Shown: in pieces, positions 5,537-63,908 of the stretch
Position numbering within the stretch: position 1 is the first letter of the stretch
Layout of the letters: every line of letters begins with the position of its first letter
Assembly (NCBI GenBank): GCA_004211905.1
Contig: SHBP01000001.1
Coordinates: 317,589-381,588 of the forward strand
Reading direction: 5' to 3'
DNA length: 64,000 bases
From: SAR92 clade bacterium
GTDB lineage: Bacteria > Pseudomonadota > Gammaproteobacteria > Pseudomonadales > Porticoccaceae
Notes under the pieces: model-generated
Seen by the model: the letters and a program-made list of their open reading frames with translations, nothing else
Databases searched by the model: none
What the model was told of the DNA's origin: nothing
Position numbers and translations under genes: made by a program

Positions 5537-5537
5537 G

Positions 5538-19973: not shown

Positions 19974-20063
19974 TTATTCCCACTCAATAGTTGCAGATTT
20001 ACAGAGCCCTATAAACGAAGGGCTACAAGCACGAAAATAAAAGCGTGTAACTTTCGTGTAACT
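19974..20063 (-). repeat. guaA-3'-end-like attachment site, copy 1
   Basis: Minus strand TCT GCA ACT ATT GAG TGG GAA TAA (SATIEWE*); AGCCCT-ATAAACGA-AGGGCT palindrome; CGTGTAACT twice (20044, 20055). Confidence 0.8.
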
Positions 20064-20196
20064 CTTACCTTCTATTTTTGTTCTGCCCATTAAACCAATT
20101 CCTTTGTTTTATCAGTTATTTAACGCATTATAACTTACAAACATTGTAACATTCCTTAAAGAACTAATTAAATGCTTAATAATAATTAATTTATGT

Positions 20197-20230
20197 TAAA
20201 CATAAATATTTAGTTGCTAAACATAAATAT
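20197..20230 (+). promoter_or_regulatory. 13-bp direct repeat, candidate autoregulatory operator
   Basis: TAAACATAAATAT at 20197 and 20218 (21-bp period) just upstream of the HTH gene. Confidence 0.5.
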
Positions 20231-20242
20231 ATCGATTAGGAT

Positions 20243-20470
20243 ATGCTCATGGAAATTTGTATCACTTTAGATGTAGAAATGGCGAAAAAGAAGATATCTC
20301 TGAAAGAGCTGTCTGAAAAAATTGGAATTTCTATAACCAACTTGTCGCTACTAAAGACAGGCAAGGTTAAGGCTATTCGCTTTAGCACTCTGATGGCTAT
20401 ATGCCGTGAGCTTGATTGTCAGCCTGGCGATATTCTTGTTTACGTAAGTGATAATTCAGAAATAAGTTAA
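20243..20470 (+). CDS. XRE/Cro-like (YozG-type) HTH regulator
   Basis: LDVEMAKKKISLKELSEKIGISITNLSLLKTGKVKAIRFSTL.AIC..LDCQPGDIL. Confidence 0.9.
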   Translation: MLMEICITLDVEMAKKKISLKELSEKIGISITNLSLLKTGKVKAIRFSTLMAICRELDCQPGDILVYVSDNSEIS

Positions 20471-20522
20471 TGACATTTCATGATGAAGTGTAATTTAGAC
20501 AATTAAACTAGGAGGTTTAATT

Positions 20523-21131
20523 ATGCAGAATAAAGATTATTTATTACCCGGTGTTGCCGCAATATTCGTGGCGGTGATATCTCCTATCTACTGGCTTGGG
20601 ATGGCTGCATCTGTGGGCGATTCCGATGTGTTATGGCAAGACATGATGTCTTTGGGGTTTTCCGATATTCTGTTTGCTTCTATTCTTCTATTAACCATAT
20701 ATATCTATCTCAATCTAAAAAATATTCTCAATGAACAATTGAACTTTAATCATATTGATTTGTTGGTTTGGATTTATGCTGCTATCAATATCCTTTGGGT
20801 GAGCACCCTACTCCTTGATGTAGCTAGCGCTGTACTACCAGAAAATATCGTATCGCAGAACGAGGGCACCTTTTTAAATATCGGATTATCAATAGGCGTC
20901 GGTGCAATTGTCATATTAGGTATCATAGATTTGTTAATAGGTATTTTACTTCTAGCGAAATCAACTGAACTTCCTACCCTACTAAAGATTTTTGCCATTA
21001 TGTCAGTGATACAGGGCGTACTAGGTATAACAGTAGTTTTTGCGGCAACGTTAATCTTCATCTTCCCGATAACTATGATTATTTTGGCTATGTTTTTTCT
21101 ACGTAAACCAGAGTCTTTAGAACTCGTTTAA
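20523..21131 (+). CDS. Multi-pass membrane protein of unknown function
   Basis: 202 aa, about 6 hydrophobic segments, AGGAGG RBS, AT-rich. Confidence 0.7.
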   Translation: MQNKDYLLPGVAAIFVAVISPIYWLGMAASVGDSDVLWQDMMSLGFSDILFASILLLTIYIYLNLKNILNEQLNFNHIDLLVWIYAAINILWVSTLLLDVASAVLPENIVSQNEGTFLNIGLSIGVGAIVILGIIDLLIGILLLAKSTELPTLLKIFAIMSVIQGVLGITVVFAATLIFIFPITMIILAMFFLRKPESLELV

Positions 21132-21140
21132 ATTGTATTG

Positions 21141-21158
21141 CCAGCAACTATTGAGCGG
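21141..21158 (+). repeat. Inverted partial att-like core
   Basis: CCAGCAACTATTGAGCGG (CCA GCA ACT ATT GAG = PATIE); 12 bp identical to copy 1 but opposite orientation; TGTAAC repeats follow at ~21240-21295. Confidence 0.45.
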
Positions 21159-21353
21159 CATATGTTTCTATATTGGAAAGTAACAGATTCACTTTTGTGG
21201 ATTATACGCTAGTTATGAATCGTAATAGTCGAGTTTGTTTGTAACAAAGCTTGTAACCGCAAAGAAGGAATGGCCTCTAAAGAGGTGATTGTAACTGACA
21301 TGGCCTTTTACTAAACTTCACCCCTCTCTTTTCAATAGCCATGTCAACACATT

Positions 21354-21388
21354 AAAAAAACCCCACAAATTGCTTTATGGGGGTTTTT
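21354..21388. terminator. Bidirectional intrinsic terminator
   Basis: AAAAAAACCCCA...TGGGGGTTTTT between convergent genes. Confidence 0.65.
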
Positions 21389-21428
21389 ATGGGCCTGGCA
21401 CGGCCGTTTGTTGACTGCGAGGGCGCGA

Positions 21429-22616
21429 CTAGAGGCCTAAAAGAGCTTCAAAATTCTTTGAATAGAAACTGTCCAACTCCTCTGATGTCGCCTGCACGGC
21501 ATCAAGACTGCGTTCGAAGGCGCCGAACGGATCTTTGCCGCCCTCTGGATGTGGGTAATCTGTATTAAACATCAACATGTCCTTGCCAACATTACGCATA
21601 ACCCAGCCGGCATCCTCAAAATGCAGTGGCGTGGCTTTCACCTGGCGTTGCATATATTCAGAGGGCTTGAGTGATAGTTTTCTTAAGCCCAGATCAAATC
21701 TGCCTAATTCAGCTGCACCGATATCTAGATTTGACATACAAGCTGGCAACCAATTTGAGCCTAATTCAACTAAACCGATTTTAAGTTTAGGAAAGCGCTC
21801 AAGCACACCATCATAGATCATGCAGGCCAACCAACGCTCAATCGAATGGTGTAAAACCGGCAGATCTTTGGGCGAAGTGGTTTCAATATTCATTGACTCG
21901 GGAGCCAATTCTCGCTTTACACCAGTGTTGCGATAGTCATCGATCAATTTCGCGCCACTGCCAATATGCAAGGTAATTGGCACACCTGCTTCTTGTAACA
22001 CGGCCCAAATCGGGTCATATGCAATATGTGATGGTGCGCGACCATCCACTGCATCTGATGTCATCCAGAAGGCTTTAATACCTATCTTGATAGCTTTTTT
22101 AGCCTCCTGTAGAGCCTTGACTGGATCTCTTAACGACAGATATCCCACCGCTTGTAGTCGATCGCTATCGCTGGAGCAAAAATCGACCATAGCTCTATTC
22201 ATGGCATCACAACCACCCCATACGACCTTTTCGTCGTTAGATCGGGCAAAACGGGAAACAAACACCAAACCTGGGAATACCAGCTGCTTGTTAATTCCGG
22301 CGATATCCAATGCATCAGTGCGTTCGATATTATTCACCGCACCATAGGCGCCGATAATATTGCGCTTGCCTTCACTACCAAAAATATCTGATTTCAGATG
22401 CTCTGTCATGGCAGGGTCATTACCAGCGAGGCGGTTATGGGCCTGATCCACCAGCGGCTTGAGCTGTGGAACCTTTTCAACTCTGAAAAACGGCTCGTCT
22501 AAATTAGCCCTGACGTACTCCGACGCATAGCCTTCGATCCAACCGTCATACTCGGAAATATGGCTATCTGCGTCGTGAATTGTACGATTTACTTGATGTG
22601 CGCTTTGTTGATTCAT
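21429..22616 (-). CDS. Amidohydrolase_2-family metallohydrolase
   Basis: IHDADSH, LHIGSG, GVLERFPKLKIG..ELG, FNTDYPHPEG. Confidence 0.9.
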   Translation of the reverse strand: MNQQSAHQVNRTIHDADSHISEYDGWIEGYASEYVRANLDEPFFRVEKVPQLKPLVDQAHNRLAGNDPAMTEHLKSDIFGSEGKRNIIGAYGAVNNIERTDALDIAGINKQLVFPGLVFVSRFARSNDEKVVWGGCDAMNRAMVDFCSSDSDRLQAVGYLSLRDPVKALQEAKKAIKIGIKAFWMTSDAVDGRAPSHIAYDPIWAVLQEAGVPITLHIGSGAKLIDDYRNTGVKRELAPESMNIETTSPKDLPVLHHSIERWLACMIYDGVLERFPKLKIGLVELGSNWLPACMSNLDIGAAELGRFDLGLRKLSLKPSEYMQRQVKATPLHFEDAGWVMRNVGKDMLMFNTDYPHPEGGKDPFGAFERSLDAVQATSEELDSFYSKNFEALLGL

Positions 22617-26010: not shown

Positions 26011-27039
26011 TTATAGACCCCCTCTTTTATCGTAGGCTTTGACTGAAAACGGGCCATCTAAATCCACAGGCTGACGCAAGGAAAAAATATTGCCATCAAC
26101 ATCGCGAGCATAGGCCTGAATAAAGCGGCCTAACTTGACCGGCGGACTAAAAAACTCAACTCCGAGCGCTTGGACTCGTTGATATTCCGCTTCGATATCA
26201 CTTACCTCCAGAGAAAATGAATAGCCTAGAGATGTTGGTTCTCGCTCTATCGTACTCTGCGGCGTGGGCGGATCTATAAACTGTAAAATTTCCATGACTT
26301 TGGACTGACGATTAAGTCTGAACCAGCCAATTTGTACCTTGGCATTATCAATATCAAACAGGTTGTCACCAAACTCACCTACCGGCACCTCGACTATTCT
26401 GTGGGGGTTGGTCTGAAAAACCTTTTGATAAAACTGCATCAGTCGATCCCTGTCAGGGGTGAACAGCGATACCTGAGACATCCAAATTGGCTTGTTATCC
26501 TTATCCCAATTGTCCAGATACCCCGCATGTTTCAACAATTGTTCGCCATCTAGCTCCTCCATTTCTAGAAGATTGCCCTCTGGATCATAGGCATAGACAT
26601 AGCTCACTCCATAGGTAGGGGAATACACAGGTTTGTCATGCCGATTCAAGAATCTGGCACCTTGGGCAGCAAACTTATCAAATAATGGCTGATCTTTAGG
26701 CGATTGATAACAGGTGTGTGACATGCCTGGCCCAATAACGGGCATATCAGTCAGAGTGACTGAGTCATTATGGGCAAATTCACTGAGCTCCAGAACCCAA
26801 TTCGGTGCTCGCAAAATCGCTGTCCGTACCTTTACATTGTCGCGAGCAAAGAGAATGTCGGCCGATGTATCATTTTCAAAGGATTCCTTATGGATCACCT
26901 CAAAACCAGTCGCTGCACTATAAAACTCCAATACCCTGTCAAGGTTTTGTACAGACAGACCAATGTGGTTCACTCCCTCAATATCTGTGGTGGAATCAAC
27001 CAGTACAGCATTGGGATCAAAGTCAAAATCTATAGTCAT
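26011..27039 (-). CDS. Double VOC/glyoxalase-domain protein
   Basis: NHIGLSVQNLDR..EFY, G.SHTC, YAYDPEGNLLE, YARDVDGNIFSLRQ. Confidence 0.8.
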   Translation of the reverse strand: MTIDFDFDPNAVLVDSTTDIEGVNHIGLSVQNLDRVLEFYSAATGFEVIHKESFENDTSADILFARDNVKVRTAILRAPNWVLELSEFAHNDSVTLTDMPVIGPGMSHTCYQSPKDQPLFDKFAAQGARFLNRHDKPVYSPTYGVSYVYAYDPEGNLLEMEELDGEQLLKHAGYLDNWDKDNKPIWMSQVSLFTPDRDRLMQFYQKVFQTNPHRIVEVPVGEFGDNLFDIDNAKVQIGWFRLNRQSKVMEILQFIDPPTPQSTIEREPTSLGYSFSLEVSDIEAEYQRVQALGVEFFSPPVKLGRFIQAYARDVDGNIFSLRQPVDLDGPFSVKAYDKRGGL

Positions 27040-28348: not shown

Positions 28349-28349
28349 C

Positions 28350-30317: not shown

Positions 30318-30923
30318 TTAGCTGTCGGTAACTACATAGGGAGCCGCGAACCCTCCCAGAATAAAACTGACGGTATTGTCAATCAAGCGCTGTCTGCTGC
30401 GTCCCGATCGATTCACTTTTTCAGCAGCGGCAATAGAAGCCGCGGAGCCCATGTAGAGGAGATGCTCTGCCTGCTCTAACGTCATCGTACGATTCTCTTC
30501 AATGACTCTCTCGATTAAAGTTCGACCAATCTCTTTGTGGTTCCTCTTTATCGTTTTAGCAACTGCCTCTCTTAGATCAGCCTGACTGAGCAGCACATCT
30601 CGTACATTTCCAGATTCAGATTGCTCAAAGTTAACCTCAACAAAGACTCTTACAAGTTCCTCAAAACTTTGAGTACTGGCTACTTTAGCCCTAATCTTCA
30701 AACGAAAATCTTCTAGTTCCCGCAACAAAAGCTCTTTAAAGATCTCTTGCCGGGAGTCGAAATATTTATAGACCAATGGGTTGCTCACACCGGCTGCCTT
30801 AGCCAGAGTCTCCATCGTAAATCCTGCAAATCCCATATCTTCGATAATTGCCGCTGCCGTGTCCAGAAGCTGTGATCGTCTTCCTTCCTTCGACAAACGG
30901 GTTCGAGGTTTTTGTGCCATCAA
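30318..30923 (-). CDS. TetR/AcrR-family regulator
   Basis: RTRLSKEGRRSQLLDTA...FTMETLAKAAGVSNPLVYKYF. Confidence 0.9.
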   Translation of the reverse strand: MMAQKPRTRLSKEGRRSQLLDTAAAIIEDMGFAGFTMETLAKAAGVSNPLVYKYFDSRQEIFKELLLRELEDFRLKIRAKVASTQSFEELVRVFVEVNFEQSESGNVRDVLLSQADLREAVAKTIKRNHKEIGRTLIERVIEENRTMTLEQAEHLLYMGSAASIAAAEKVNRSGRSRQRLIDNTVSFILGGFAAPYVVTDS

Positions 30924-30991: not shown

Positions 30992-32524
30992 TTATGTCGC
31001 CTTGGCTTTAGGCTGTTGTTGATTTCGCTTATGCTCTTCGATGCCAGCAATGATTTTGATATGCATGGAATGGGTCAAATGATATTTCCCATAAAAGAAT
31101 ACGGCGACAAACGACGCTATACCCATAATGGGCCCAGCCAGTATACCCATTCGAAATAACACGTCTGCGTCAACAGCTCCCGGAACCGCTAGCGATGGGA
31201 AACGAACAAATTTGTCCAGCCCTACGCCACCCACCAAGTGACCAAAGGAAAACGAAGCTTTAGCAAAAAAGGCTCTTGCAGAATAGAATAACCCTTCCTG
31301 GCGCAAACCTGTCTCCAACTCGTTTTCATCTACCACATCACCAATCATAGACATCATAGCGACAGCACCAAGGCCAATCACAAACGCGAATACGCCTGCG
31401 TTGCAGAGCAGCAGTGGTAGCAATGTAGCGCTATGATTGTCAGGCATTAAATCGAGCAATCTCAAATCCACAACCAGTTGAGCAGTAATCGCCATACAAA
31501 TCAGAGAGAAGATTACCACAGGCTTGCGATCGAACTTGCGCATTAACACAGGTGAAATTAAAGCACCAAATAAGGCACAGGGTGCCGACACTAGTCCAAA
31601 CCAGCGAATTTGTCCCGGCACGAGCTCCCAAAAGTAAGTGTTCATAAAAACACCTAAAGTATCGTAGATTCCGCTAGCAATCATAAAGAAAAAGTAACCG
31701 GCAAGTAGTACGACATAATTGCGGCACTTTAATGTGAGCAATATCTCTTTAAAGAAACCTTTAAAAGAGAGCGGTTGTTGCTTTGGTGGCTCGGATAGTG
31801 ATGGCACATGCTTATACGTGCCTGCAGCGGTAGTCCAAATCGCCACTAGAACCAAACTACAAGCTAACAATATCAAAGGAGCATAGGAGGCTGCATTTAA
31901 GTGCCCCGGAACTACCACGCCATCAACAGCTCTTATATGGTCGCCATCAAAGAATACGCCCCAAGCCAAAAATCCAAACAAGGCACCAGTTACATAGGAA
32001 AATGCAGAATTGGCACTAAACAATCTGGAACGTTGATTTTGGTTCTTTGACATTTCACCCCCCAGGGCGAGATGCGGAATTGAATAGAGTGTTAAGAATA
32101 CCCGACTAAAAATAGTGCAGGAGGCTAACCATGCGAACAGGACATAATTAGTGAAATTATCTACTTCATTCAGAATGGCTTCAGGCGGATTGAAAATTGC
32201 GTAGATTGCCAGCGCCAAGGGTATGGGCGCAGCAAATAGAAATGGATGTCGTCGTCCGTGCTTGGATTTCCATTTGTCTGAAATTATCCCAATCAATGGG
32301 TCGGTGATCGCATCAACCAGCAGGGCCACGAAGATCGCAATACCGATGAGGGTATTCGATAGTCCAATTACCTGGTTATAAAAAATAGTAATAAAGGTAT
32401 TGAACAGCCCCAAGTAAACTGCCTCACCTGCGGCCCCAATACCAAATGCGGCGACTGACCAACGAGATAGTTTTTCGTCGATCTTTGTTCTTAGACCAGT
32501 ATCCTGCGTCTTAATAGGAGTCAT
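30992..32524 (-). CDS. MFS transporter (GPH/MelB-like)
   Basis: DAITDPLIG.ISD....GRRHPF, IPHLALG.E, D..DENEL.TG.RQEG.F. Confidence 0.9.
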   Translation of the reverse strand: MTPIKTQDTGLRTKIDEKLSRWSVAAFGIGAAGEAVYLGLFNTFITIFYNQVIGLSNTLIGIAIFVALLVDAITDPLIGIISDKWKSKHGRRHPFLFAAPIPLALAIYAIFNPPEAILNEVDNFTNYVLFAWLASCTIFSRVFLTLYSIPHLALGGEMSKNQNQRSRLFSANSAFSYVTGALFGFLAWGVFFDGDHIRAVDGVVVPGHLNAASYAPLILLACSLVLVAIWTTAAGTYKHVPSLSEPPKQQPLSFKGFFKEILLTLKCRNYVVLLAGYFFFMIASGIYDTLGVFMNTYFWELVPGQIRWFGLVSAPCALFGALISPVLMRKFDRKPVVIFSLICMAITAQLVVDLRLLDLMPDNHSATLLPLLLCNAGVFAFVIGLGAVAMMSMIGDVVDENELETGLRQEGLFYSARAFFAKASFSFGHLVGGVGLDKFVRFPSLAVPGAVDADVLFRMGILAGPIMGIASFVAVFFYGKYHLTHSMHIKIIAGIEEHKRNQQQPKAKAT

Positions 32525-32607: not shown

Positions 32608-33768
32608 CTATGCCAAAGACATCAAGGCCTGCATGTTGCCATGATAAAACTTACTCATGGTGGCTTCATCACAGCCTTCCATTGTAGCTTCGAACTTGCT
32701 GATAGGATCTGACCCACCCTCTGGATGCGGATAGTCCGATGCGTAGCAAATCATATCCGGACTGGTATTTTCAATGATCCATCCAACGGGTTCACCGGCA
32801 AAGGGCGAAAACTTAAGACATCGTCTCGCTGTATCTGAGGGTTTTTCCACAAACTCTCGACGCGGCACATAAGCTCCGTAGGTAAAGTCTAGCGACTTTA
32901 GCCAGGATGGAACCCAAAATGCACCATGCTCCATACACATGCCTCGTAGACTGGGGTGACGATCAAAGACGCCGTCAAAAATTAGCGCCGACAGAAATAG
33001 TTCAGCCGAATTTTTTATCGTTATCAGACCGAGCTCGCCTGCAGGCGCATCGCCACCCAGCGCAATAGTATTCTTGCCATTGCGCTTAAAGCTTTTTGGC
33101 ACAGCTTCATAATGACCATTGGCGGCCACATGTATTCCAAAGGGTACCCTCTGCTCTACAAAACCTGCCCAGACAGGGTCAAAGTCTGGATGAGCAAAAC
33201 TAATCTTGTCATCGTTGGGCTCATTGGTGTCAATCATAAAGGTATAACAACCGTCATCGAAGCCCTGTTTCATTAGCTCCAGCGCCCTCTCTGGCCCTAG
33301 GGTATAGGGTAAATACCCAATGGCAAGCAAGCGATCATCATGGGCACAAAAGTCAGCCATAGCCTTATTTAGGGTACGAGCGCCTGCATAGAGTGCGTCC
33401 ATATCACCCACATGGGCCACCTGATGAAATGAGAAAGTGGGTAGCACCCATTGCTTCTCATAACCAAACAGATCCAGTGCATGGGAGCGCTCTTGAGGGT
33501 CAAATGCGCCAATTCGGGACCAACCACCCAGGTTGTTGCTGACAATAATATCCTCGCATTCTTGCTTAACGGTGGCATCATGCTTGCGCCGCTCGAACAG
33601 CTCTACGCCGTCATCATATTTTTGCCTATCAATTGGTAGCTCTGTTTGATCATCCATTTTTTGCAGCAGTTCTATATCAGCTTCTCTGGCCGCCTTTATT
33701 AGAAAGTCATCTAGCTCTATAACATGACTGTCGGCATCAATGATCTTGCGGTGTTGTGCGTAACTCAT
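32608..33768 (-). CDS. Amidohydrolase_2-family metallohydrolase
   Basis: IDADSH, GVFDRHP.L, YASDYPHPEG. Confidence 0.9.
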   Translation of the reverse strand: MSYAQHRKIIDADSHVIELDDFLIKAAREADIELLQKMDDQTELPIDRQKYDDGVELFERRKHDATVKQECEDIIVSNNLGGWSRIGAFDPQERSHALDLFGYEKQWVLPTFSFHQVAHVGDMDALYAGARTLNKAMADFCAHDDRLLAIGYLPYTLGPERALELMKQGFDDGCYTFMIDTNEPNDDKISFAHPDFDPVWAGFVEQRVPFGIHVAANGHYEAVPKSFKRNGKNTIALGGDAPAGELGLITIKNSAELFLSALIFDGVFDRHPSLRGMCMEHGAFWVPSWLKSLDFTYGAYVPRREFVEKPSDTARRCLKFSPFAGEPVGWIIENTSPDMICYASDYPHPEGGSDPISKFEATMEGCDEATMSKFYHGNMQALMSLA

Positions 33769-43604: not shown

Positions 43605-44699
43605 CTACCTAGCGCCCCAGGCATCCAGCTTGCGCACCGAGAGACGTGACTGAGGATCAACCGCCTGACGCAGGGAAAAGATATTACCATCCAGATCTCG
43701 GCTGTAGACTTGCCAGAAATCATCCAGCTCAACAGGCTCGCTTACAAAATCTAATCCCAGACTAGTCAGACGCCGGTACTCTGCCTGAATATCTGCAACC
43801 TCGATAGAGAACGAATAGCCCAGCGCAGTCACAGCGCGCTGACCAGTAAATTCTGGCGTCTCCGGGCTGATATATTGCCAAATCTCAATCACCTTGGATG
43901 CCTGATTTAATTTAAACCAGCCACCAATTAAGTCGACATTATCTATATTTACTATATCGTCCAGTCTGGGATTATCAGCAACATGGGCGTATCTGTAGGG
44001 CTTAAACCCTAATACCATTTGATAGAACTCAATCAGCCCTTCAATATCATGGGTCGCCAAACCCACCTGAGACATCCATAGATTTCCATCCAAATCCTGC
44101 CCGCTACCGCCGTAGCCTGCGCGCTCTAATAATTTACCATCCAGCTGTTCGAGTTCAATCATGTTGCCGTCCGGATCATAGGCATAGCCATAGGTGATGC
44201 CATAGCCACCAAGATCAATTGGCTGGTCACCGCGAGATAGCGGATCTATATCCATTGCCACAAACTTGTCCCAGCCAGAGTCATAGCTAGGAGATTGAAA
44301 ACAGGTGTGAGTCATACCTGGCCCCTCGGGTGGCATATTACTCACTGGGACGTCCTGGTTACCCTCGAACTGGGTTAACTCCAACAGCATATTAGGCCCC
44401 CTAAGAACAGCTATCTCATAGGCAATATTGTCTTGGCCAAATAGCTTGCTGGTCTGCTCATTGGCGCTAACCGACTCTCGTCGCAACAATTCAAACTGAG
44501 TGGCTCCCTGATAGAACGCTAGCGCAACATCCAGATCTCTTACCGACAGCCCAATATGATTTAATCCAATGACAGTAGTGCTGGCATCGGCGACAGTTGC
44601 GGTTTTATCCACATCTACTGGGCTCGTTGGCTGCACAATCATATACAGAGCAATACCTAGAGCGGCGATTAACAGTACAGACTTGCTGACAAGGTTCAT
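43605..44699 (-). CDS. Double VOC/glyoxalase-domain protein with N-terminal TM
   Basis: NHIGLSVRDLD.AL.FY, GPGMTHTC, YAYDPDGN.IE, YSRDLDGNIFSLRQ; paralog of 26011-27039. Confidence 0.8.
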   Translation of the reverse strand: MNLVSKSVLLIAALGIALYMIVQPTSPVDVDKTATVADASTTVIGLNHIGLSVRDLDVALAFYQGATQFELLRRESVSANEQTSKLFGQDNIAYEIAVLRGPNMLLELTQFEGNQDVPVSNMPPEGPGMTHTCFQSPSYDSGWDKFVAMDIDPLSRGDQPIDLGGYGITYGYAYDPDGNMIELEQLDGKLLERAGYGGSGQDLDGNLWMSQVGLATHDIEGLIEFYQMVLGFKPYRYAHVADNPRLDDIVNIDNVDLIGGWFKLNQASKVIEIWQYISPETPEFTGQRAVTALGYSFSIEVADIQAEYRRLTSLGLDFVSEPVELDDFWQVYSRDLDGNIFSLRQAVDPQSRLSVRKLDAWGAR

Positions 44700-54765: not shown

Positions 54766-57360
54766 CTAAGGTTTACTGTTAAAAACGCTAATTGCCTCTA
54801 TATTCAAACCAAGCTCAGTACCTTTAAGACCATCGGCACTGACATTAATGGTCGCATCACCAACACTGGCTTTAGTTTGCACAATTAACAGAGCTCGACC
54901 ATTACGGGTGGTGATTTCATTGGTCTTGTGAGGCTGAACGTTATCTTCCGCGCCATTGTCTACCCCCAATGACTGAAGCTTTGGATCGATATCAAAGCTC
55001 AACTTCCGCTCCTGAGTCGTTACCGCAACACCGTTTTTATCAACTACCTGTGCGGTGATATGTGCGACATCGTAGCTATCGGCATCCAAGCGTTTTCGAT
55101 CCACACTCAGAACAATAGCCGCAGGCTCCAGACTAGAACGAAGGCTTGTACCGACATCCACACCGGTCACCACCGATATCGCCTTCAACTCACCCGGCTC
55201 GAAGGCCACCGCCCACTTTAAAATGTGATCATCGTTGTCGATCAATCGCTGTACGCCCTGCGACTTGCCGTTGAGGAACAACTCTACCTCTGCCTGGTTG
55301 GTATACACCTCAACCACAATGTCTTGACCGGGGTTGTAGTTCCAATGCGCATTAACATCGTGCCAACCCCAGTTCCTCCACTTCCACTGGCCCTCCGTTT
55401 CTTCGACTACTTGATTGTCTTCTACGCGGTAGATCGAATCATCAAGATCGGCTGTAGTCATATAAACATGGGGTTCCTCGCTCCAGATCGATTTCATCAT
55501 ATGGTAACTGGGCTTCTTGAAACCCGCGAAATCCAACATGCCACTGGGTGCACCCTTGGACGGCCAGCGGCCTTCCACCTCACCTAGATAATCTATGCCT
55601 GTCCACACAAAAATACCCGCCACAAAAGGCCTATTCAGCACAGCTTCCCATTCAGCCCACTGAACAAAGTTTTCAGTACCCATCACCATCTTTTCGGGAT
55701 AGTGCCGGCGAGCATAATCGTAAATTGCTCGGCGATAGCTGAAGCCAGCGATATCCACAGCGTCGGCATAACCTGAATGTAAGCTAACCGATGGCAGTAC
55801 CATATTAGTGGTGACAGGCCGACTGGTATCAAGTGTTCGTAGCCACTTTGACAAACGCTGGGCAGTCCCTGCGAGGGTCGGTTCTTCAGCTTTAAAGCTA
55901 TTGAACACCGCTTTACTCTGCTCCGGAGTTATCGGGGGTTCCTTATGTGTTGCCCCCTTAGACTTGCCATTTTTGCCAAAATAACCGGTAGCGGGAATGT
56001 ATCTTGGGTAGCTCCATTCAATCTCATTACCAATACTCCATTGAAAAATAGATGGATTATTAATATCTCGCCTAATGATGGCGGTGAGATCTTTTTCAGC
56101 CCACTCAGTGAAAAATTCACTGTAGCCTTGCTCGATATAATCAATCTCTCCCTGATGACGACCGTTTCTACGCTTGTTTTTGGGTCTTTCCCACTCGTCA
56201 AAAGTTTCTTGCTGAACCAAGAAACCCATCTCATCACACAGTTCAATAAATTCTTTGGAGGCAGGTTTGTGACCGGTCCGAATAGCATTCACCCCCGCTT
56301 CTTTCAAAGCTTCCAAACGGCGCTTCCAAACCCCTAGAGGTACCGCAGCTCCCACTAGCCCAGCATCATGATGAAGGTTAACCCCTTTGATTTTTACGTT
56401 TCTATCGTTTAGAAAAAAACCGGTTTTGGCGTCGTTTCTTAAGGAACGAATACCGAAACGGGTACTCTTAGAATCAAGTAACTGTCCCTCAACTAGAACC
56501 TCTGTCTCAGCGAAATATAAATTAGGATTATCTATATCCCAAAGCCGCGGCTGAGTCACAATAACCTCTTGGCGAAGTAATTCGGTGGCGCGTGCGGCAA
56601 TTTCCAGACGCTTCACATCTCTACCAATGTTACGGCCCGAGTCATCGAGTAGCGTAGTTGAAACATTCAACACCCTGGCTTGCGCACTATCGTTTCGTAG
56701 TTCCGTGCTTATAAGCACCTTAGCACGCTCCGAAGTCACTTCCGGGGTTAAAATAGTACTTCCCCAAATTGGCACATGCACTTGACCTGTGATGACAAGC
56801 TTTACATTTCGGTAGATGCCAGAGCCCGTGTACCAGCGAGAATCCACATAGCGGCTGCGATCAACATACACAGCAATCACATTGTCACTGCCATCTGTAT
56901 TAAGAAACGGCGTGAGGTCATAATAAAAAGCCACATAGCCAAAGGGACGATAGCCGAGTGAATGTCCGTTAATCCACACCTCTGAGTGATTGTAGATTCC
57001 GTCGAACAAAATTTGGGTCTTGGCTATTTCGCCATTTGCCAGCTCCGGCGTAGCAAAATGCTTTCTATACCACCCCAGGCCACCTGGTAGATAGCCTGTA
57101 GCACCCGCGGTATTCTCCTGTGAATACTCCGCCTCGATGCTCCAATCATGGGGTAAGCGAAGCTCGCGCCAGCTGCTGTCGTCAAATGCTGGTGCTTGCG
57201 CTCCACTGTGTTCACCCAGACTGAATTTCCAATCGAAATTAAAATCCAGTTCTTGGCGGGTGCTGGCATCGTCATTCGCGGCAAGTGCAGCGCTGAATGC
57301 TAGCAATAGAACTTGGGTGCAAAATACGAATGCGGAAAAGAATGAACGATAAGTGGGCAT
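54766..57360 (-). CDS. Glycoside hydrolase family 2, secreted
   Basis: FNFDWKF, LPHDWSIE, SRWYTGSGIYR.V, KGVNLHHD.G..GAA, NAIRT.H, WSIGNE, GTE, VWTGIDYLGE. Confidence 0.92.
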   Translation of the reverse strand: MPTYRSFFSAFVFCTQVLLLAFSAALAANDDASTRQELDFNFDWKFSLGEHSGAQAPAFDDSSWRELRLPHDWSIEAEYSQENTAGATGYLPGGLGWYRKHFATPELANGEIAKTQILFDGIYNHSEVWINGHSLGYRPFGYVAFYYDLTPFLNTDGSDNVIAVYVDRSRYVDSRWYTGSGIYRNVKLVITGQVHVPIWGSTILTPEVTSERAKVLISTELRNDSAQARVLNVSTTLLDDSGRNIGRDVKRLEIAARATELLRQEVIVTQPRLWDIDNPNLYFAETEVLVEGQLLDSKSTRFGIRSLRNDAKTGFFLNDRNVKIKGVNLHHDAGLVGAAVPLGVWKRRLEALKEAGVNAIRTGHKPASKEFIELCDEMGFLVQQETFDEWERPKNKRRNGRHQGEIDYIEQGYSEFFTEWAEKDLTAIIRRDINNPSIFQWSIGNEIEWSYPRYIPATGYFGKNGKSKGATHKEPPITPEQSKAVFNSFKAEEPTLAGTAQRLSKWLRTLDTSRPVTTNMVLPSVSLHSGYADAVDIAGFSYRRAIYDYARRHYPEKMVMGTENFVQWAEWEAVLNRPFVAGIFVWTGIDYLGEVEGRWPSKGAPSGMLDFAGFKKPSYHMMKSIWSEEPHVYMTTADLDDSIYRVEDNQVVEETEGQWKWRNWGWHDVNAHWNYNPGQDIVVEVYTNQAEVELFLNGKSQGVQRLIDNDDHILKWAVAFEPGELKAISVVTGVDVGTSLRSSLEPAAIVLSVDRKRLDADSYDVAHITAQVVDKNGVAVTTQERKLSFDIDPKLQSLGVDNGAEDNVQPHKTNEITTRNGRALLIVQTKASVGDATINVSADGLKGTELGLNIEAISVFNSKP

Positions 57361-58031: not shown

Positions 58032-58282
58032 GGGCTTATTGAGCGAAAAGCATTGGGCTACATAGCAACTTAAACCTCGCTCCAGTCCAAAAAAACTGCG
58101 ATTAACGAGCCAAGACGTTTTGGTAGGAATTTAAAAGCATCCATGCACATGGCTATCCTCCTTTCACCGGCCTCCCTCGGCGCCGTAGGACACCTTTAGG
58201 GATCCAGCATCAGACTAATTCCTATAAGCGCGTGTTCCAAACTGAACTAATACCGTTGCAAGCTTGAATCATAGATACTTTG

Positions 58283-59758
58283 TCAACGCTGGGAGGTTTT
58301 TTCTAACTCCTTCAAAATATCAAGGTGTTTGGCTCGAGTAAGCCGATACCGCGCATAAAATGGCAGCGCACAAAAGCCTGCGATGCACATGATTGGTCCT
58401 GCGAATAAACCCAAACGCCAGATGACATCAGCGTCGACTTCACCAGGCACCGCATCAAAGGGAAAAACAATATACACATCTAGAATTATGCCACCAAAAA
58501 AGTGACCCGCTGAGTTGGATGCTTTTGCGAAGAAAGCGCGCGCTGAATAGATCAAGCCTTCCTGACGCAGACCGAAAAGCAACTCGTTTTCATCCGCTAT
58601 GTCACCCAAGATCGACATCATCGCAACGGCTCCCGCGGCGGCGCACATCACCGAAACCATTCCGTTAAACATTATTATTGGGAGCAAATATTCAGATCCA
58701 TTGGCGGGCATCAAATCGAATAAGCGCAGAACTAAGGGTATTGGACCAATTATCAATAAACCAAGAAGCCCACCGATCAGCACCGGCTTACGGTCAAATT
58801 TTCTCATCAATCTAGGAGACGCAGTCGCACCGATGATAATGGCGGGGACTCCCACCAGGCCGAACCATTTGATTTGCTCAGGTTTAAATTCCCAAAAATA
58901 GGTTGCAATAAAGACCGACAAGGTATCACTAAGCCCAACTGAAATCATGAGCAAGAAAAATCCAATCATCAAAAAAGTGTAGTTGGGATTAGCGAAAACG
59001 CCGACCATCTCTCGATAGAAACTCAAGAGCGATCTTCGCGCGTCACTCTTAGCTACCGAACTTAAATAGGGCACGCGATCCAGCGTACCAAGAGCACTAA
59101 GGTTGATCATCACTAAGATAATCCCGCAGGCGGTTAGAACCACAGGTGGATACGCCGATGCATCTAGGTGTTTAGGCACGACGGACCCGTCTGCCAATAG
59201 GCTTTCGCCACTCAGAAAAAAGCCCCAGACTGAGAAAGAAAATAGCGCGCCTGATACATATCCAATGATCGCGTTTGAACTGAACAGCCTTGAGCGCTCA
59301 TTGGGGTCCTTGGCCAACTCAGCGCCTAATGCATGATGCGGGATGGTATACAGCGTGACAAACACGCGCCCGCATATAGTCCAAACAGCTAACCAGGCAA
59401 ACAGCCATATCTGATTGGGTTCACCTGCAACGCCCCCCGTTAGAAAATCCGGTGGACTGAAAATTGCGTACAGAGAGACAGCGAGGGGAATAGGCGCGGT
59501 AAAAAGAAAGGGGTGGCGTCTGCCTAACCGCGAACGCCAGCGATCAGAAATCATCCCAACCATAGGGTCGGAGATAGCGTCGCCGATCGTAGCAAGCATG
59601 ATCGCAGTGCCTATCAGCGAATTGGAAAGACCTATTGCCTGGTTGTAGTAAATGACGATAAAGGTGTTAAACATGCCGAGGAAAACAACCTCTCCCACCT
59701 CCCCGATTCCATAAGCTAGCGTAGTCCTGAATGGCAAAGGTGCTCGTGTAGTTTCCAT
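58283..59758 (-). CDS. MFS transporter (GPH/MelB-like)
   Basis: DAISDPMVG.ISD....GRRHPF, IPHHALG.E, DIADENEL..G.RQEG; paralog of 30992-32524. Confidence 0.9.
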   Translation of the reverse strand: METTRAPLPFRTTLAYGIGEVGEVVFLGMFNTFIVIYYNQAIGLSNSLIGTAIMLATIGDAISDPMVGMISDRWRSRLGRRHPFLFTAPIPLAVSLYAIFSPPDFLTGGVAGEPNQIWLFAWLAVWTICGRVFVTLYTIPHHALGAELAKDPNERSRLFSSNAIIGYVSGALFSFSVWGFFLSGESLLADGSVVPKHLDASAYPPVVLTACGIILVMINLSALGTLDRVPYLSSVAKSDARRSLLSFYREMVGVFANPNYTFLMIGFFLLMISVGLSDTLSVFIATYFWEFKPEQIKWFGLVGVPAIIIGATASPRLMRKFDRKPVLIGGLLGLLIIGPIPLVLRLFDLMPANGSEYLLPIIMFNGMVSVMCAAAGAVAMMSILGDIADENELLFGLRQEGLIYSARAFFAKASNSAGHFFGGIILDVYIVFPFDAVPGEVDADVIWRLGLFAGPIMCIAGFCALPFYARYRLTRAKHLDILKELEKTSQR

Positions 59759-60324: not shown

Positions 60325-61503
60325 ATGAGTACACAGCAATCACACCGCGAAGGTAGAATCATTCATGACGCAGACAGTCACATAATCGAATATCCTGGGT
60401 GGCTGGAGAGTTATTCCAGCGAATACGTTAAAGCCAACCTTAAGCCCAGCCGATTAACGACAGACAATCCATTATTTAAGCGAATTATAGATCAGGCCGA
60501 TAAGCGTCTGGCAGGCAATGATCCGGAGCTGACAGAAACGTTGAAATCGAACATCTTCGGCGCGCGGGAAAAGCTCAATATGTGGGCAGCCTTCGGAGCG
60601 ACCAAGAAGGCAGAAAGAAGTGAATCACTGGATATAATGGGTGTTAGCTCGCAGCTGATCTTTCCCAGCATCGCGATGGCGCGTTTTTCTCGCACCCCTG
60701 ATATGGACTTGATGTACGGCGGCGCGGACGCCTTGAATCGTGGCATGGCAGACTTTTGTGCTGACGATCCTCGCATGCTGGCAGTGGGCCATGTACCCCT
60801 TAATGATCCATTGCGCGCACAGGATTGTCTTAAAAAAGCGCTGAAGCTTGGCATTCGCTCAATCTGGGTCATTGCAGATTCAGTCGAAGGCCGCGCCCCT
60901 TCTCATCTGGACTACGACCCTCTCTGGGCGATGATGGAGGAAGCCGGAGTGGCTGTCACCCTGCACATCGGTAGTGGGGTAAATATGCCTCCGGAGTATA
61001 TGAACACCGGTGAAGAGCGTGAGCTGAAAGGGAACCCATTCAATATAGAAAGCACCAAAGCTCATGACATACCTGTATTGCACCACGCCATAGAGCGCTG
61101 GCTAACCTGCATGATCTACCATGGTGTTCTGGAGCGCTTTCCGCGCCTCAAAGTCGGCATTATCGAATTGGGCGCCAATTGGCTTCCCACCACACTCGCC
61201 AATTTAGACATTGGCCGTTTTCATTTGGGGAAGTTTGACACGAGCTTAGACAAGCTTTCACTAAAACCATCAGAGTATATTCACAGACAGGTTCGCGTCG
61301 CGCCCTTGCATATGGAAGACGCCGGTTGGATTTTACGCAATGTTGGCAAAGACATTCTAATGTTCAACACAGACTATCCTCACCCCGAGGGTGGCAGCGA
61401 CCCCTTCGGTGACTTTGAACGTAGCCTCAACGCCGTAGACGCTACCCCAGAGGAATTGGACAACTTCTACAGTAAGAACTTCGAATTTTATATGGGCCTG
61501 TAG
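60325..61503 (+). CDS. Amidohydrolase_2-family metallohydrolase
   Basis: IHDADSH, LHIGSG, FNTDYPHPEG; close paralog of 21429-22616. Confidence 0.9.
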   Translation: MSTQQSHREGRIIHDADSHIIEYPGWLESYSSEYVKANLKPSRLTTDNPLFKRIIDQADKRLAGNDPELTETLKSNIFGAREKLNMWAAFGATKKAERSESLDIMGVSSQLIFPSIAMARFSRTPDMDLMYGGADALNRGMADFCADDPRMLAVGHVPLNDPLRAQDCLKKALKLGIRSIWVIADSVEGRAPSHLDYDPLWAMMEEAGVAVTLHIGSGVNMPPEYMNTGEERELKGNPFNIESTKAHDIPVLHHAIERWLTCMIYHGVLERFPRLKVGIIELGANWLPTTLANLDIGRFHLGKFDTSLDKLSLKPSEYIHRQVRVAPLHMEDAGWILRNVGKDILMFNTDYPHPEGGSDPFGDFERSLNAVDATPEELDNFYSKNFEFYMGL

Positions 61504-61514
61504 TACTTCCCTAA

Positions 61515-61549
61515 TCGCGCGCGGCCAGCAGAGACTGGTCGCCGCGCGA
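61515..61549. terminator. GC-rich hairpin between convergent genes
   Basis: TCGCGCGCGGCCAG-CAGAGA-CTGGTCGCCGCGCGA. Confidence 0.5.
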
Positions 61550-61557
61550 ATTCACTG

Positions 61558-62151
61558 TCAGGTTTTAAAGGCCTCTACACCGTTCAGAATAAAACTGACG
61601 GTATCCTCCACCATTTTTTTCCGGCTACCACCATATCTGGCATAGTGCCTAGCAGCTTCGATAGAAGCACCGGATGCTAGGGCGATGACATGACCAGCTT
61701 GGGAGGGTGTAAGATGGTACATCTCTTTCACAGTAGCCACCAGAAACTGCCCAGTTTTGCGTAAATCATCTTTCTGTCTCTCTTTGTTTACTTCTTGTAG
61801 TTCCGGCTGCGCGCCTAAAATATGAGCAATTCCGCCCAGAGTAAACTGTTTGAAATTGAGGTTAACAAAAACTCTCACCACATCCTCAAAATTTTCTGCT
61901 ACAGATAACTCCTCTCTGACACTAAGGGCATAACTCTCATACTCTCTCGCCCAAAGATCCTGTAAAAGCTCCAGCCGAGTATCAAAGTACTTGTATATCA
62001 ATGGATTGCTAACACCAGCTTCGAAAGCTAGGGTGTCCATAGTGAAACCAGAAAAGCCCTTCTTCAAAAGCAGTTCTCTGGCAGTATCCAGCAATTGATT
62101 TCGACGGCCCTCAGGAGAAAGGCGAGTGCGCTTATTGCCACTCATAATCAT
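61558..62151 (-). CDS. TetR/AcrR-family regulator
   Basis: RTRLSPEGRRNQLLDTA...FTMDTLA.EAGVSNPLIYKYF. Confidence 0.9.
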   Translation of the reverse strand: MIMSGNKRTRLSPEGRRNQLLDTARELLLKKGFSGFTMDTLAFEAGVSNPLIYKYFDTRLELLQDLWAREYESYALSVREELSVAENFEDVVRVFVNLNFKQFTLGGIAHILGAQPELQEVNKERQKDDLRKTGQFLVATVKEMYHLTPSQAGHVIALASGASIEAARHYARYGGSRKKMVEDTVSFILNGVEAFKT

Positions 62152-62159
62152 GTTTCCTT

Positions 62160-62258
62160 TTAATTTAATAAGCTTTGGTTATTAGCAACGAATGCTATAA
62201 AAGAATATCCTATTGCGCCTAATGTTAGAAAAATTAGATACTTTTTTTGTCTTTTCAT
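62160..62258 (-). pseudogene. 32-codon signal-peptide-like stub starting 1 nt after att copy 2
   Basis: ...GAA TAA A ATG; MKRQKKYLIFLTLGAIGYSFIAFVANNQSLLN*. Confidence 0.5.
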
Positions 62259-62259
62259 T

Positions 62260-62344
62260 TTATTCCCACTCAATAGTAGACGCTTCTGAAACCCTTATAA
62301 AAAGACGGTTACAGCCAGATAGAAAGTAGTTTGTCACGACTGTT
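62260..62344 (-). repeat. guaA-3'-end-like attachment site, copy 2
   Basis: Minus strand TCT ACT ATT GAG TGG GAA TAA (STIEWE*); degenerate ATAAA-centred palindrome; AAAGTAGTTTGTCACGACTGTT at 62323. Confidence 0.85.
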
Positions 62345-62391
62345 TTATTATTTTGTCTACCATAACCCCAATTGCTCCAGTTTCACTGGTT

Positions 62392-63822
62392 TTAGTTGCT
62401 TGATTCAATAGATATTATAGAATAAAGAGATGCATCAATTCCTGCCTTGTAATCAGCAAAGGTAAAAGGCACCGGTATGTCAGGTTCAAGAGATCCTACA
62501 GAGGTAGGATATTTAAAATCTGTCCAATAACATTGGATCCAATCTTCGCAACCATATAGTTGATCATGCAATCCTCTTGCAGCTGTCATTCCAATACCTG
62601 AATTAGGAAGAATAAAAGCATTGGTCTCCCCCCAACTCAAAGGACTATCTCCAATTCTACGACCCACAATAATTAGTTCATTATGTAGAGCTTCTTTAAG
62701 AAACCCTAGTGAGCTAATACCTGCTGAGAAAGTTTCATGACCAGTTATGGCGTAAACCCTTGAGCTCTCTGGTATTAGCTCTGGGATCTCAAACATTAGA
62801 TCAACTGTTTTTGTGTAGTCACCCCCACCATTAAAACGTTGATCAAAAATTAATACTTCTGGTTTGAATGAAGAAATTTCTTGTCTGATCTTTTTATTAA
62901 ATTCTGAAATACTCATTTGCTGGCCATCGTTATTTTGGCGGTATTGAATATAAAGCATTCCAAGATCACTGAGTCGACTTAATTGAAACTCATCATTCGT
63001 TTTTAAATAAAGTGGATCATAGTTTGTATCATTAGAAAAACTGATAAATTGCTTGTTATGATCATGATCGAATTGAGGCATTAACCACACCCAAGGAGAT
63101 TGTATGTGCCTATCCTTTTGAGGAGGTATTGCTTTAATTTGAAACGCTTCAACACTGCCTTCATTATTAATGGTCGTCACATCCAAGTTAAGCTTATTGT
63201 CTATAAATCCCAGCTCAAAAAGGAATGCTGTGTTTTGAATTAAGAATGGTAAGGCGTATGCAACAAAACCACTATCCTCGCCACCATAATATCCTCTGAA
63301 AGCATCTTTAATTACCTCAATATCGGCATTACCAATATGAGTAACTCTAGCCCCTAGCAAGCTTGCATATTCGTTAGTTGTAGCAACTATATGATAGCCG
63401 TCATCAAACCAATATCCCTGATAAGGCATAGATGGGTAGCGCTTGGCCCTTGAACCATTCCAAACATTGGAATGACCGTTTTCTCCTAGTGCAACTATTT
63501 CGCTTATTGCCAGCTCAAATCTCGCTTGAGAGAGTTTATCTACCTCCTTCCTCAATTTATTAATTTTACTTAAAGCTATACCTCTTGCTCTAAAATGAAA
63601 GCTTCGATCATAACCTCTTACATAATTTTCAAAATACTCTAAATCCTGCAAGCGGGCTTCTTTCTCATTATTTGGAGTAGGAAAATTTGCATTAGGTGCA
63701 TCAGGATAAAACAGCAGGTTTCTTGTTAACTCGGGAATTCCAATGAAACCAATCAACAAAAATATCGCTAAAGTAAAAATTAAAGCAATATTCTTTTTAC
63801 TTATTTTTGAATTCTTATTCAA
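62392..63822 (-). CDS. S41-family peptidase-like exported protein
   Basis: N-terminal TM/signal, D.H-like NGHS motif, IFDQRFNGGGD, TFSAG, IIVG...G; TTG start 1 nt after the att-core TAA. Confidence 0.75.
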   Translation of the reverse strand: MNKNSKISKKNIALIFTLAIFLLIGFIGIPELTRNLLFYPDAPNANFPTPNNEKEARLQDLEYFENYVRGYDRSFHFRARGIALSKINKLRKEVDKLSQARFELAISEIVALGENGHSNVWNGSRAKRYPSMPYQGYWFDDGYHIVATTNEYASLLGARVTHIGNADIEVIKDAFRGYYGGEDSGFVAYALPFLIQNTAFLFELGFIDNKLNLDVTTINNEGSVEAFQIKAIPPQKDRHIQSPWVWLMPQFDHDHNKQFISFSNDTNYDPLYLKTNDEFQLSRLSDLGMLYIQYRQNNDGQQMSISEFNKKIRQEISSFKPEVLIFDQRFNGGGDYTKTVDLMFEIPELIPESSRVYAITGHETFSAGISSLGFLKEALHNELIIVGRRIGDSPLSWGETNAFILPNSGIGMTAARGLHDQLYGCEDWIQCYWTDFKYPTSVGSLEPDIPVPFTFADYKAGIDASLYSIISIESSN

Positions 63823-63823
63823 T

Positions 63824-63908
63824 TTATTCCCACTCCATAGCTTGAAAACCTGTAACCCCTATAAACGAGGGGTTACAGAGAGATAAAAAGTAGTTTGTCA
63901 CGACTGTT
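63824..63908 (-). repeat. guaA-3'-end-like attachment site, copy 3
   Basis: Minus strand GCT ATG GAG TGG GAA TAA; perfect palindrome CTGTAACCCCT-ATAAACG-AGGGGTTACAG (63850-63878); AAAGTAGTTTGTCACGACTGTT at 63887. Confidence 0.85.

Follow-up and report, generated by a model that had tools for sequence, protein, structure and literature searches.

A probable lambda-type tandem accretion platform at the guaA stop codon in a SAR92 clade bacterium

A 64-kb stretch of DNA from a SAR92 clade bacterium (hereafter the window) contains three direct copies of a guaA-like 3' end, each attached to a module of ~85 bp. Together with the related loci described below, these copies very probably belong to a site-specific, lambda-type tandem accretion platform at the guaA stop codon, operated by a mobile family of tyrosine integrases. 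The shared recombinase proposed in the initial annotation was found as an integrase family, which is carried by a mobile 4-kb element (referred to here as the driver) and is not fixed beside the array.

Core-plus-module copies and variable arrays downstream of guaA

Exactly three copies of TTATTCCCACTCMATAG are present in the window, starting at 19974, 62260 and 63824 and all on the plus strand, while no match is expected in shuffled sequence. The open reading frames (ORFs) of the minus strand terminate at these cores as SATIEWE, STIEWE and AMEWE, respectively, directly before the stop codon. Alignment of the three copies demonstrated that their similarity spans ~95 bp, with the same order in each: the guaA-3'-end core, a palindrome and direct repeats of 11-bp period. 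ATAAA begins at +37 from the core start in all three copies (20011, 62297 and 63861), and an exact 22-mer, AAAGTAGTTTGTCACGACTGTT, is located at +63 in copies 2 and 3 (62323 and 63887), reproducing the three exact copies and the fixed geometry that had been described before. The perfect 11-bp palindrome arms claimed alongside were confirmed in copy 3 (CTGTAACCCCT/AGGGGTTACAG, 63850-63878), the arms being just 5-6 bp in copies 1 and 2. The 22-mer is the copy-2/3 version of an 11-bp-period direct-repeat pair, such as is found in every module, and its counterpart in copy 1 is CGTGTAACTTT/CGTGTAACTC at 20044-20064.

All three modules lie on the minus strand. Module 1 (19974-20071) contains the core CTATTGAGTGGGAATAA, as read on the minus strand (19974-19990), a weak palindrome AGCCC..GGGCT (20005-20024) and the repeats (20044-20064). 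It forms the distal junction of a 42-kb block, and its type is joined to four different cargo clusters in other strains. Module 2 (62260-62356), with its core at 62260-62276, a palindrome GAAACC..GGTTAC (62288-62312) and repeats including the 22-mer (62323-62344), is the 3' attachment module of a cassette, C1, encoding a 476-aa protein. Module 3 (63824-63917) has a core with a CCATAG variant (63824-63840), followed by the palindrome (63850-63878; fold z -6.7) and the 22-mer (63887-63908); it serves as 3' module to the following unit, which is cut off by the window end, and its type carries a different cargo in L002 (L numbers denote related loci). The remaining partial unit at the right end (63841-64000, minus strand) consists of module 3 and the last ~90 bp of a cargo of unknown identity, and beyond 63912 the window has no match in any fetched locus. 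Scanning of the window and the related loci with a module profile built from many module types revealed no further real copy in the 64 kb; a weak match at 6274-6368, inside the coding region of a DUF6249 gene, was rejected as spurious.

Across loci, the module reads in guaA sense as an 11-bp-period repeat pair (consensus TTACAAAGTnGTTACAAAC), ~15 nt, an AAACCC..GGGTTT inverted repeat, ~10 nt, ACTATTGAGTGGGA and a stop codon. AGTGGG is the sole invariant block across 20 module types. The repeats match each other within a module and differ between modules, with TTTGTAAC, CGTGTAAC, TTTGTATG, TTTGTAAG, GTTTACAAG and ATGTAGTAAGT as variants. As a single-strand fold the palindrome is mostly weak (mean z -1.3; z < -2 in 6 of 26 module types), RNAalifold gave no consensus hairpin on the modules, and neither a T-tract terminator nor a promoter consensus was observed at them. 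The weak folds, together with the absence of a consensus hairpin and a T tract at the modules, led us to read the palindrome as a putative protein-binding inverted repeat in duplex DNA, and the lack of a promoter consensus suggests that the cassettes are promoterless. A module always moves with the cargo preceding it in guaA sense, and a single module type may be found with up to four different cargoes.

An exact-protein look-up of the amidohydrolase encoded at 60325-61503 returned ten contigs that match the right part of the window at 95-97% identity. In all contigs sharing the right end of the window, guaA (525 aa), guaB, xseA and der follow rightward on the minus strand, in agreement with the predicted position of guaA, which in the present contig is likewise expected to the right of the window. 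In L001, L004 and L005, the end of guaA coincides with the position of core 2 and nothing separates guaA from the TetR gene, so that the site is empty, and the 42-kb block follows directly after guaA. At the same position, 2-6 different small units are present in L002, L003, L006, L007 and L008, with core plus module at every unit boundary; over all strains with a filled site, the number runs from 1 to 7. L002, the complete 2.69-Mb genome CP179212.1, carries between TetR and guaA the 476-aa gene, a 183-aa gene, DUF4386, a pair of HTH_34 and 159-aa genes, a beta-lactamase-fold gene and SnoaL, and other small-gene sets are found there in L003, L006, L007 and L008. From the guaA side, the order of units is guaA, C1, C10, C11, C2, C3 and TetR in L003, and C2, C12, C13, C3, C1 and TetR at the TetR end of L006, while C1 adjoins TetR in L002, L008 and the window. 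Content and order between cores therefore vary even among near-identical strains, and empty sites exist, as the proposed variability of cargo had implied. As a further example, an 891-bp MerC cassette accounts for a precise presence/absence difference of L036 and L028.

In total, 68 modules were found in 40 of the fetched loci, delimiting 54 units in ~27 clusters with sizes from 185 bp to 8 kb, the 42-kb block apart. In most units, the genes are co-oriented with guaA, and the ORF often begins 1-10 nt past the stop codon of the core. No recombinase of their own was found in the small units, neither in the window scans nor in the related units, which accords with the initial annotation, and the module occurs solely downstream of guaA in the window and ~1 Mb of related loci, so that it is not scattered.

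Cassette C1 (62260-63823, minus strand) is a 1564-bp unit of one gene (62392-63822) and module 2. The gene, with a TTG start 1 nt after the TAA of the core, encodes a 476-aa protein with an N-terminal hydrophobic stretch, whose function is unknown and which gave no Pfam or NCBIfam match and no exact match in the protein collection. The identical C1 unit recurs on the guaA side in L003, whereas L002, L006, L008, L092 and the window have it in a distal position, with exact boundaries and consistently ending in a GTTTGTCAC-type module. Metatranscriptome contigs cover the C1 gene, some of them joining the guaA 3' end, the core and the start of the downstream gene, and one metatranscriptome contig population is without C1. 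Expression of the cassettes may proceed by read-through from guaBA.

The driver element and its integrase

In sister strains, a driver element of 4.1-4.4 kb is located exactly at the guaA stop codon and comprises a tyrosine integrase, a serine resolvase, three to four small ORFs and an array-type module. In L032, for example, a 423-aa protein is encoded after the guaA stop codon, with a 195-aa serine resolvase and small ORFs behind it. The tyrosine integrase that had been anticipated near the array is accordingly found at the guaA stop codon in sister strains and in many taxa, and not within the 64 kb of the window. Comparison of L028 with L032 provided a before/after pair, in which the flanks are 99.93-99.97% identical (10.4 kb and 5.9 kb) and the difference is a 4066-bp insertion. 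The junctions are ATTGAGTGGGAGTGA followed by aataatg for attB in L028, and ATTGAGTGGGAATAA followed by caaaatc for attL and ATTAAGTGGGAGTGA followed by aataatg for attR in L032, placing strand exchange within the 7-bp AGTGGGA. The L036/L028 and L048 comparisons are consistent with this crossover. A 7-bp overlap is typical of lambda-type integrases. Depending on the adjacent unit, guaA was also observed to close with GAATAA, GAATAG, GAGTAA or GAGTGA among L001-L045, differing in the stop codon and in the third base of the final Glu codon, as would be expected if all sequence 3' of AGTGGGA came from the inserted DNA.

The distal end of the driver is a standard module, consisting of CATACAAAGTT AATACAAACTT, the palindrome and the core, and its proximal arm carries CATACAAACTT twice. 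The layout of the proximal arm is constant, with the core, 37-39 nt, a repeat pair, ~55 nt, a second repeat pair and then int. Repeat pairs are present on both arms at fixed distances, and their sequence covaries with the integrase clade. Just past the core, another conserved inverted repeat (AAACCCCCATTCTTAAGGGGTTT-like), with additional TTTGTAAC-type pairs after it, was noticed in many units and in the driver encoding integrase P0127 (for instance L007 13640-13775, L038 17139-17222 and unit starts in L029, L030, L033 and L039), suggesting that some units keep both arms of the attachment site.

The 423-aa protein matches the integrase family PHROG_1 (E 1.3e-31) and scores 25.5 bits against Pfam PF00589 (Phage_integrase), for which the cut-off is 27.1, and no NCBIfam model, integron-integrase models included, matches it. 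Among 20-24 homologs, no variation occurs at R245, K284, R360, H361 and Y392, and Tyr357 takes the place of the first His. The AlphaFold model (predicted local distance difference test score 83) displays an N-terminal four-strand sheet plus helix, followed by two helical domains, and the best Foldseek matches are Tn1549 Int, full-length lambda Int and XerH (E ~1e-9), IntI (2a3v) ranking 23rd. The protein is thus a tyrosine recombinase with the catalytic residue set and fold. It is predicted from the model to be a lambda-type, three-domain integrase, whose N-terminal domain may bind the arm repeats. Another protein found after guaA in several strains, of 435 aa, was considered as an integrase and rejected; it has a signal-like N-terminus and an HHxxxD-type motif.

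The small ORFs of the drivers had no Pfam, PHROGs or NCBIfam match, so no excisionase was identified among them, and no polymerase, primase or helicase was recognised in the drivers. Searches of IMG/VR viral contigs returned no relatives of the integrase, and a phage or satellite origin is therefore unsupported.

The driver is mobile. A 77% identical integrase, P0127, is encoded directly after guaA in three genomic backgrounds as the same protein, within a 4.4-kb element that is 99.8-99.98% identical between them and carries a GNAT gene. L048, a chromosome-level assembly labelled Thiomicrospira, whose guaA product is 62% identical to the SAR92 protein, possesses the L032 driver together with the MerC cassette; identity is 97.8% across 5.3 kb and 99.7% across the element. 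Homology breaks off within the distal core, and the flanking sequences are not related. The driver and an integrase-less cassette thus appear to have travelled between hosts in a single block bounded by cores, and the presence of this block in two unrelated hosts would fit co-mobilisation.

Relatives of the integrase number 703 in metagenomes and are encoded at 41 loci in GTDB species genomes. They are distributed in Gammaproteobacteria (Porticoccaceae, SAR86, Cellvibrionales, Thioglobus and Oceanospirillaceae) and Alphaproteobacteria (Rhodospirillales, Sphingomonadaceae, Caulobacteraceae, Hyphomicrobium and Rhizobium), and at 27 of the 41 loci a full guaA ending in GAGTGGGA is found 150-220 bp upstream of the integrase gene. 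Public contigs showed strain variants and loose ends at cores. Many metagenome contigs (L089-L103) were seen to end 0.2-2 kb past guaA, or to begin inside guaA, different alleles of which are attached to the same driver, and the array and the driver appear to break short-read assemblies.

The 42-kb block and the surrounding flexible island

The 42.3-kb block between cores 1 and 2 (19974-62259, minus strand) contains catabolic and transport genes, including three amidohydrolase_2, two MFS_2, three TetR and two glyoxalase genes, a Rieske oxygenase, GH2, ABC exporters and a TonB receptor, with no internal module or recombinase. In L023 and L027, which carry an extracytoplasmic function (ECF) sigma protein identical to that of the window, the block is absent and the order is guaA, core, a 516-aa gene, module plus core, an HTH_34 remnant and the ECF sigma gene. 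The block is bounded by cores, and mobility of its own is only a candidate property. Paralogous sets were noted within it: the amidohydrolase_2 genes at 21429-22616 (minus strand) and 60325-61503 (plus strand) are 59% identical and inverted, with a third at 32608-33768, and pairs are formed by MFS_2 (30992-32524 and 58283-59758), glyoxalase-fold dioxygenases (26011-27039 and 43605-44699) and TetR (30318-30923 and 61558-62151). These sets suggest that the block is made of duplicated or stacked catabolic modules. Two strain differences were also observed in it. At 58097/58098, L001, L003-L005 and L007-L010 have an extra 1.8 kb with a 450-aa beta-lactamase-fold gene, and since this indel is flanked by the 6-bp repeat (A/G)CTGCG alone, it was not made by the guaA system. 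The GH2 glycosidase (54766-57360) is intact in the window with 864 aa and reduced to 81- and 168-aa fragments in CP179212.1 (L002 7026-7737).

Cassette material was found at the distal end of the block (20072-21295, no strand assigned), comprising an HTH_26 gene (20243-20470, plus strand), a gene for a 202-aa membrane protein (20523-21131, plus strand) and a leader fragment of the 160-aa/HTH_34 unit (21165-21295), which carries TTTGTAAC-type repeats. The unit of HTH_26 and 202-aa genes is also present inside the guaA array of L006, with 97% identity. The first feature past the distal core is a pseudogene of the winged-helix protein HTH_34 (19701-19983, minus strand), split into ORFs of 32 and 52 aa and starting 13 nt after core 1. 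An intact form of 94 aa belongs to the arrays of L002, L003, L006 and L007, and in L018, L020 and L022 it neighbours the ECF sigma gene. A circular permutation, considered because 21165-21247 and 10908-10988 match one contiguous stretch of L002, was set aside in favour of two separate cassette relics.

Further left, the distal part of the flexible island (10939-19700, minus strand) encodes two S9 peptidases, a TonB-dependent receptor, FecR and the ECF sigma factor, and is missing from strains whose guaA is at a distance of 2-6 kb from the cupin and penicillin-amidase genes. In L028-L037, guaA is followed by 0-4 small units, a few genes and then cupin, penicillin amidase, HxlR and ADH, which correspond to window positions 1-10827 reversed. 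The homology of these loci to the window stops at ~10938, and ~10.94-64 kb of the window is therefore a flexible island. The two S9 peptidase genes (11030-15293) have a guanine plus cytosine (G+C) content of 58-61%, compared with 39-47% around them, and are probably foreign DNA within the island. A candidate decayed fourth or terminal core, TTACTACCACTCATTTGTTG (10851-10870, minus strand; 15/20 to the core), followed by a TTTGTTTGTAA remnant, is kept beside the cupin gene in all strains; it is proposed with low confidence and was not picked up by the module profile. A second near-core, TTATTGCCACTCATAAT (62132-62148; 14/17), 128 bp from core 2, was rejected, as it overlaps the TetR start codon in all strains. 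It is probably a chance match, ~0.3 one-mismatch 12-mers being expected, and may otherwise be a very old core.

Outside the guaA array, L029 and the window share the segment 5538-7489 (DUF2178, DUF6249, an ECF-type sigma factor and a 106-aa gene), which L028, L031 and L034 lack, making it a second polymorphism of presence and absence. Pfam scans of ~49 ORFs identified metabolic, transport and regulatory genes with a mosaic G+C content of 37-61%, and no tRNA genes or Rfam families were found in the window. Among database proteins, those with 97-99% identity to the product of the neighbouring guaA bear the names SAR92 clade or Porticoccaceae.

Proposed mechanism, alternatives and related systems

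Combining the array comparisons with the anatomy of the driver, we propose that the integrase would recombine the attachment site of a circular element with the last codons of guaA. In guaA sense, this site would comprise at least two arm-type 11-bp-period repeats, the AAACCC..GGGTTT inverted repeat, a core ending in ACTATTGAGTGGGA and the stop codon, and strand exchange in AGTGGGA would lead the incoming DNA to supply the final Glu codon and stop of guaA. Each integration would deposit a cargo with its own arm module behind it and restore the core, so that repeated events would stack units head to tail, most of them retaining just the ~85-bp arm module without a recombinase. Such units may rely on the driver integrase in cis, being excised and integrated together with a neighbouring driver between outer cores, or in trans, as separate circles. 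Mobilisation by either route may continue today, a well-motivated prediction, single cassettes may still be excised, and the palindrome and the resolvase may each have a role. In the window, cores 3, 2 and 1 would then be the three junctions bounding the 476-aa cassette and the 42-kb block. A broader proposal, put forward tentatively and somewhat less likely than not, is an integron-independent cassette system, in which ~85-bp double-stranded modules with largely promoterless single genes would be captured at the guaA stop codon, rewriting the last codon and stop of guaA, expressed by guaBA read-through and shuffled in trans across Alpha- and Gammaproteobacteria by 4-kb drivers, with the arm repeats as specificity classes matched to integrase lineages.

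Several observations weigh against accretion by a driver integrase as described here. Pfam detected no integrase, resolvase, transposase, other mobility gene or driver remnant in the 64-kb window. No circular or excised forms were seen in the public runs, which are contigs and blind to rare junctions, and the short integrase contigs, which begin in different alleles of guaA, have no overlapping ends and are not circular. Core-spanning RNA contigs may include contaminating DNA. Most loci are metagenome assemblies, in which repeats can give rise to chimeras, although the key cases draw on the complete genome L002, the chromosome-level assembly L048, the single-cell genome L050 and, for L029 and L030, contigs of 0.5-1.3 Mb. 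Moreover, the distal end of the 42-kb block is cassette debris and not a clean structure, and the block may be an old fixed insertion or a product of rearrangement. Finally, truncated integrase genes exist beside guaA (e.g. L076), and decay of once-autonomous elements also contributes to the arrays.

Decay might in principle account for the arrays entirely, if the units were remnants of autonomous elements with a deleted integrase, that is, dead scars that are never remobilised. Besides the truncated integrase fragments, which lie beside guaA or in islands, and the broken cassette pieces of the 42-kb block, the GNAT gene of the 4.4-kb element demonstrates that drivers can bear cargo. We nevertheless regard decay alone as unlikely, because many units start an ORF within a few nucleotides of the core without integrase debris, the C1 unit occupies different array positions with exact core boundaries, the integrase-less MerC cassette reached an unrelated host with the driver in an exactly core-bounded form, and one arm module is found with different cargoes.

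A homologous-recombination hotspot, at which the 17-20-bp guaA-end repeats serve as microhomology for RecA-dependent or slippage-mediated gain and loss without a dedicated recombinase, is very improbable. Direct repeats can mediate deletions, and the unrelated 1.8-kb indel of the island is flanked by just a 6-bp repeat. However, the gain of novel DNA takes more than deletion between repeats, attL and attR share merely 7 bp in the before/after pair, a cognate integrase family is present at the exact site across two proteobacterial classes, and the arm repeats covary with the integrase clade.

Still less credible is a dispersed repeat of the repetitive extragenic palindromic (REP) or miniature inverted-repeat transposable element (MITE) kind, or a shared terminator or leader resembling the guaA end by chance. 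The module is indeed short, palindromic and intergenic just upstream of start codons, but in the window and ~1 Mb of related loci it is confined to the guaA-downstream island, and it lacks a T-tract terminator, promoter consensus or Rfam family, marks exact presence/absence boundaries and rides on integrase elements.

A classical integron, with IntI, attI and attC cassettes recombined as folded single strands, can be dismissed almost entirely, being already refuted on the defining features tested: despite the palindrome in each module, IntI is missing, the integrase resembles Tn1549 and lambda Int in its fold, the invariant block is AGTGGG and not GTTRRRY, the palindromes fold weakly without a consensus hairpin, arm-type direct repeats are present and the target is the end of a protein-coding gene. 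What stands of the earlier label integron-like is the outcome, namely arrays of small, mostly single-gene, co-oriented and recombinase-less units of variable order and content, with reused modules of ~85 bp and ORFs right after the core. The machinery is different, being of lambda type, with no attC (no R or L boxes), no evidence of single-strand folding, double-stranded sites with a 7-bp overlap, capture at the stop codon of a housekeeping gene and a recombinase that is itself mobile and usually not in the array.

Accretion by the driver integrases was compared with known systems. Integration at guaA has been described for Tn5801, streptococcal ICEs and IMEs (conjugative and mobilisable integrative elements, respectively), and ICERspD18B. 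IntG of Mesorhizobium also targets guaA. With the lambda type in general, the predicted three-domain integrase with an N-terminal beta-sheet, the putative arm-type repeats on two arms, the short attP/attB overlap and the restored gene 3' end are shared, while here no Xis or other directionality factor was identified, a conserved AAACCC..GGGTTT inverted repeat separates the arm sites from the core, and the element also encodes a resolvase. In staphylococci, staphylococcal cassette chromosome (SCC) units stack at the 3' end of the housekeeping gene rlmH (orfX) between direct repeats, including pseudo-SCC without recombinases, which rely on those of other elements. SCC differs in its large serine recombinases (CcrAB/CcrC), its phylum and its much larger units. 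GIsul2 inserts at the guaA 3' end, with GAGTGGGA in the core, and its integrase excises and integrates an integrase-less CR2-sul2 unit bounded by a third internal att site (PMC9376610). The marine system is similar to GIsul2 in its guaA 3'-end target and GAGTGGGA core, in tandem integrations that regenerate cores and in a serine recombinase (resG in GIsul2). The integrases are without detectable relation (BLASTP E 9.6 against the Int of pAB3 GIsul2, NZ_CP012005 81035-82237), and tblastn of the marine integrase against 72,556 plasmids gave no match. Furthermore, the marine drivers are 4 kb in comparison with 15 kb, without rep, tra or toxin-antitoxin genes, and the arrays hold up to at least six tiny units, each with its own arm module.

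In Streptococcus thermophilus, cis-mobilisable elements (CIMEs) reportedly undergo tandem accretion with ICESt1 and ICESt3 at the fda 3' end. As is described for CIMEs, non-autonomous units pile up one after another where a housekeeping gene ends, each with att sites of a related autonomous partner on its two sides, and they may be mobilised in cis together with that partner; the small units here have driver-type att sites at their ends and contain no recombination genes. The autonomous partner differs, being a 4-kb integrase-resolvase element without conjugation genes, and the units are far smaller, more numerous and not obviously derived from the driver by deletion. Seven tRNA genes serve as targets of tycheposons, of which many have replication modules with polymerases, primases and helicases (bioRxiv 10.1101/2020.12.28.424599). 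Like the tycheposons of Prochlorococcus, the elements described here are small and cargo-bearing, use tyrosine recombinases to build islands in streamlined marine bacteria, and show repeated partial targets and older units pushed inward. Unlike them, they target guaA, their drivers have no recognisable replication genes and the arrays are ordered with intact arm modules. By analogy, the closest systems in logic would be tandem accretion with cis-mobilisable elements and the islands built by tycheposons, and literature searches returned no description of guaA cassette arrays in marine bacteria.

Flexible islands hold most of the strain-specific genes of abundant marine bacteria, and their builders are known for few lineages. 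Here, the island builder can be named and tested, as a widespread and unannotated integrase family that targets guaA in at least two proteobacterial classes, with cargoes including MerC, beta-lactamase-fold enzymes, acyltransferases and regulators, together with many functionally uncharacterised proteins. The finding would explain why metagenome contigs break just past guaA, and the combination of core, inverted repeat and 11-bp-period repeats provides a marker for cassette mining and for tracing gene flow in SAR92, SAR86, SUP05-type and alphaproteobacterial plankton. It also indicates that integron-like cassette arrays can come from ordinary lambda-type recombination.

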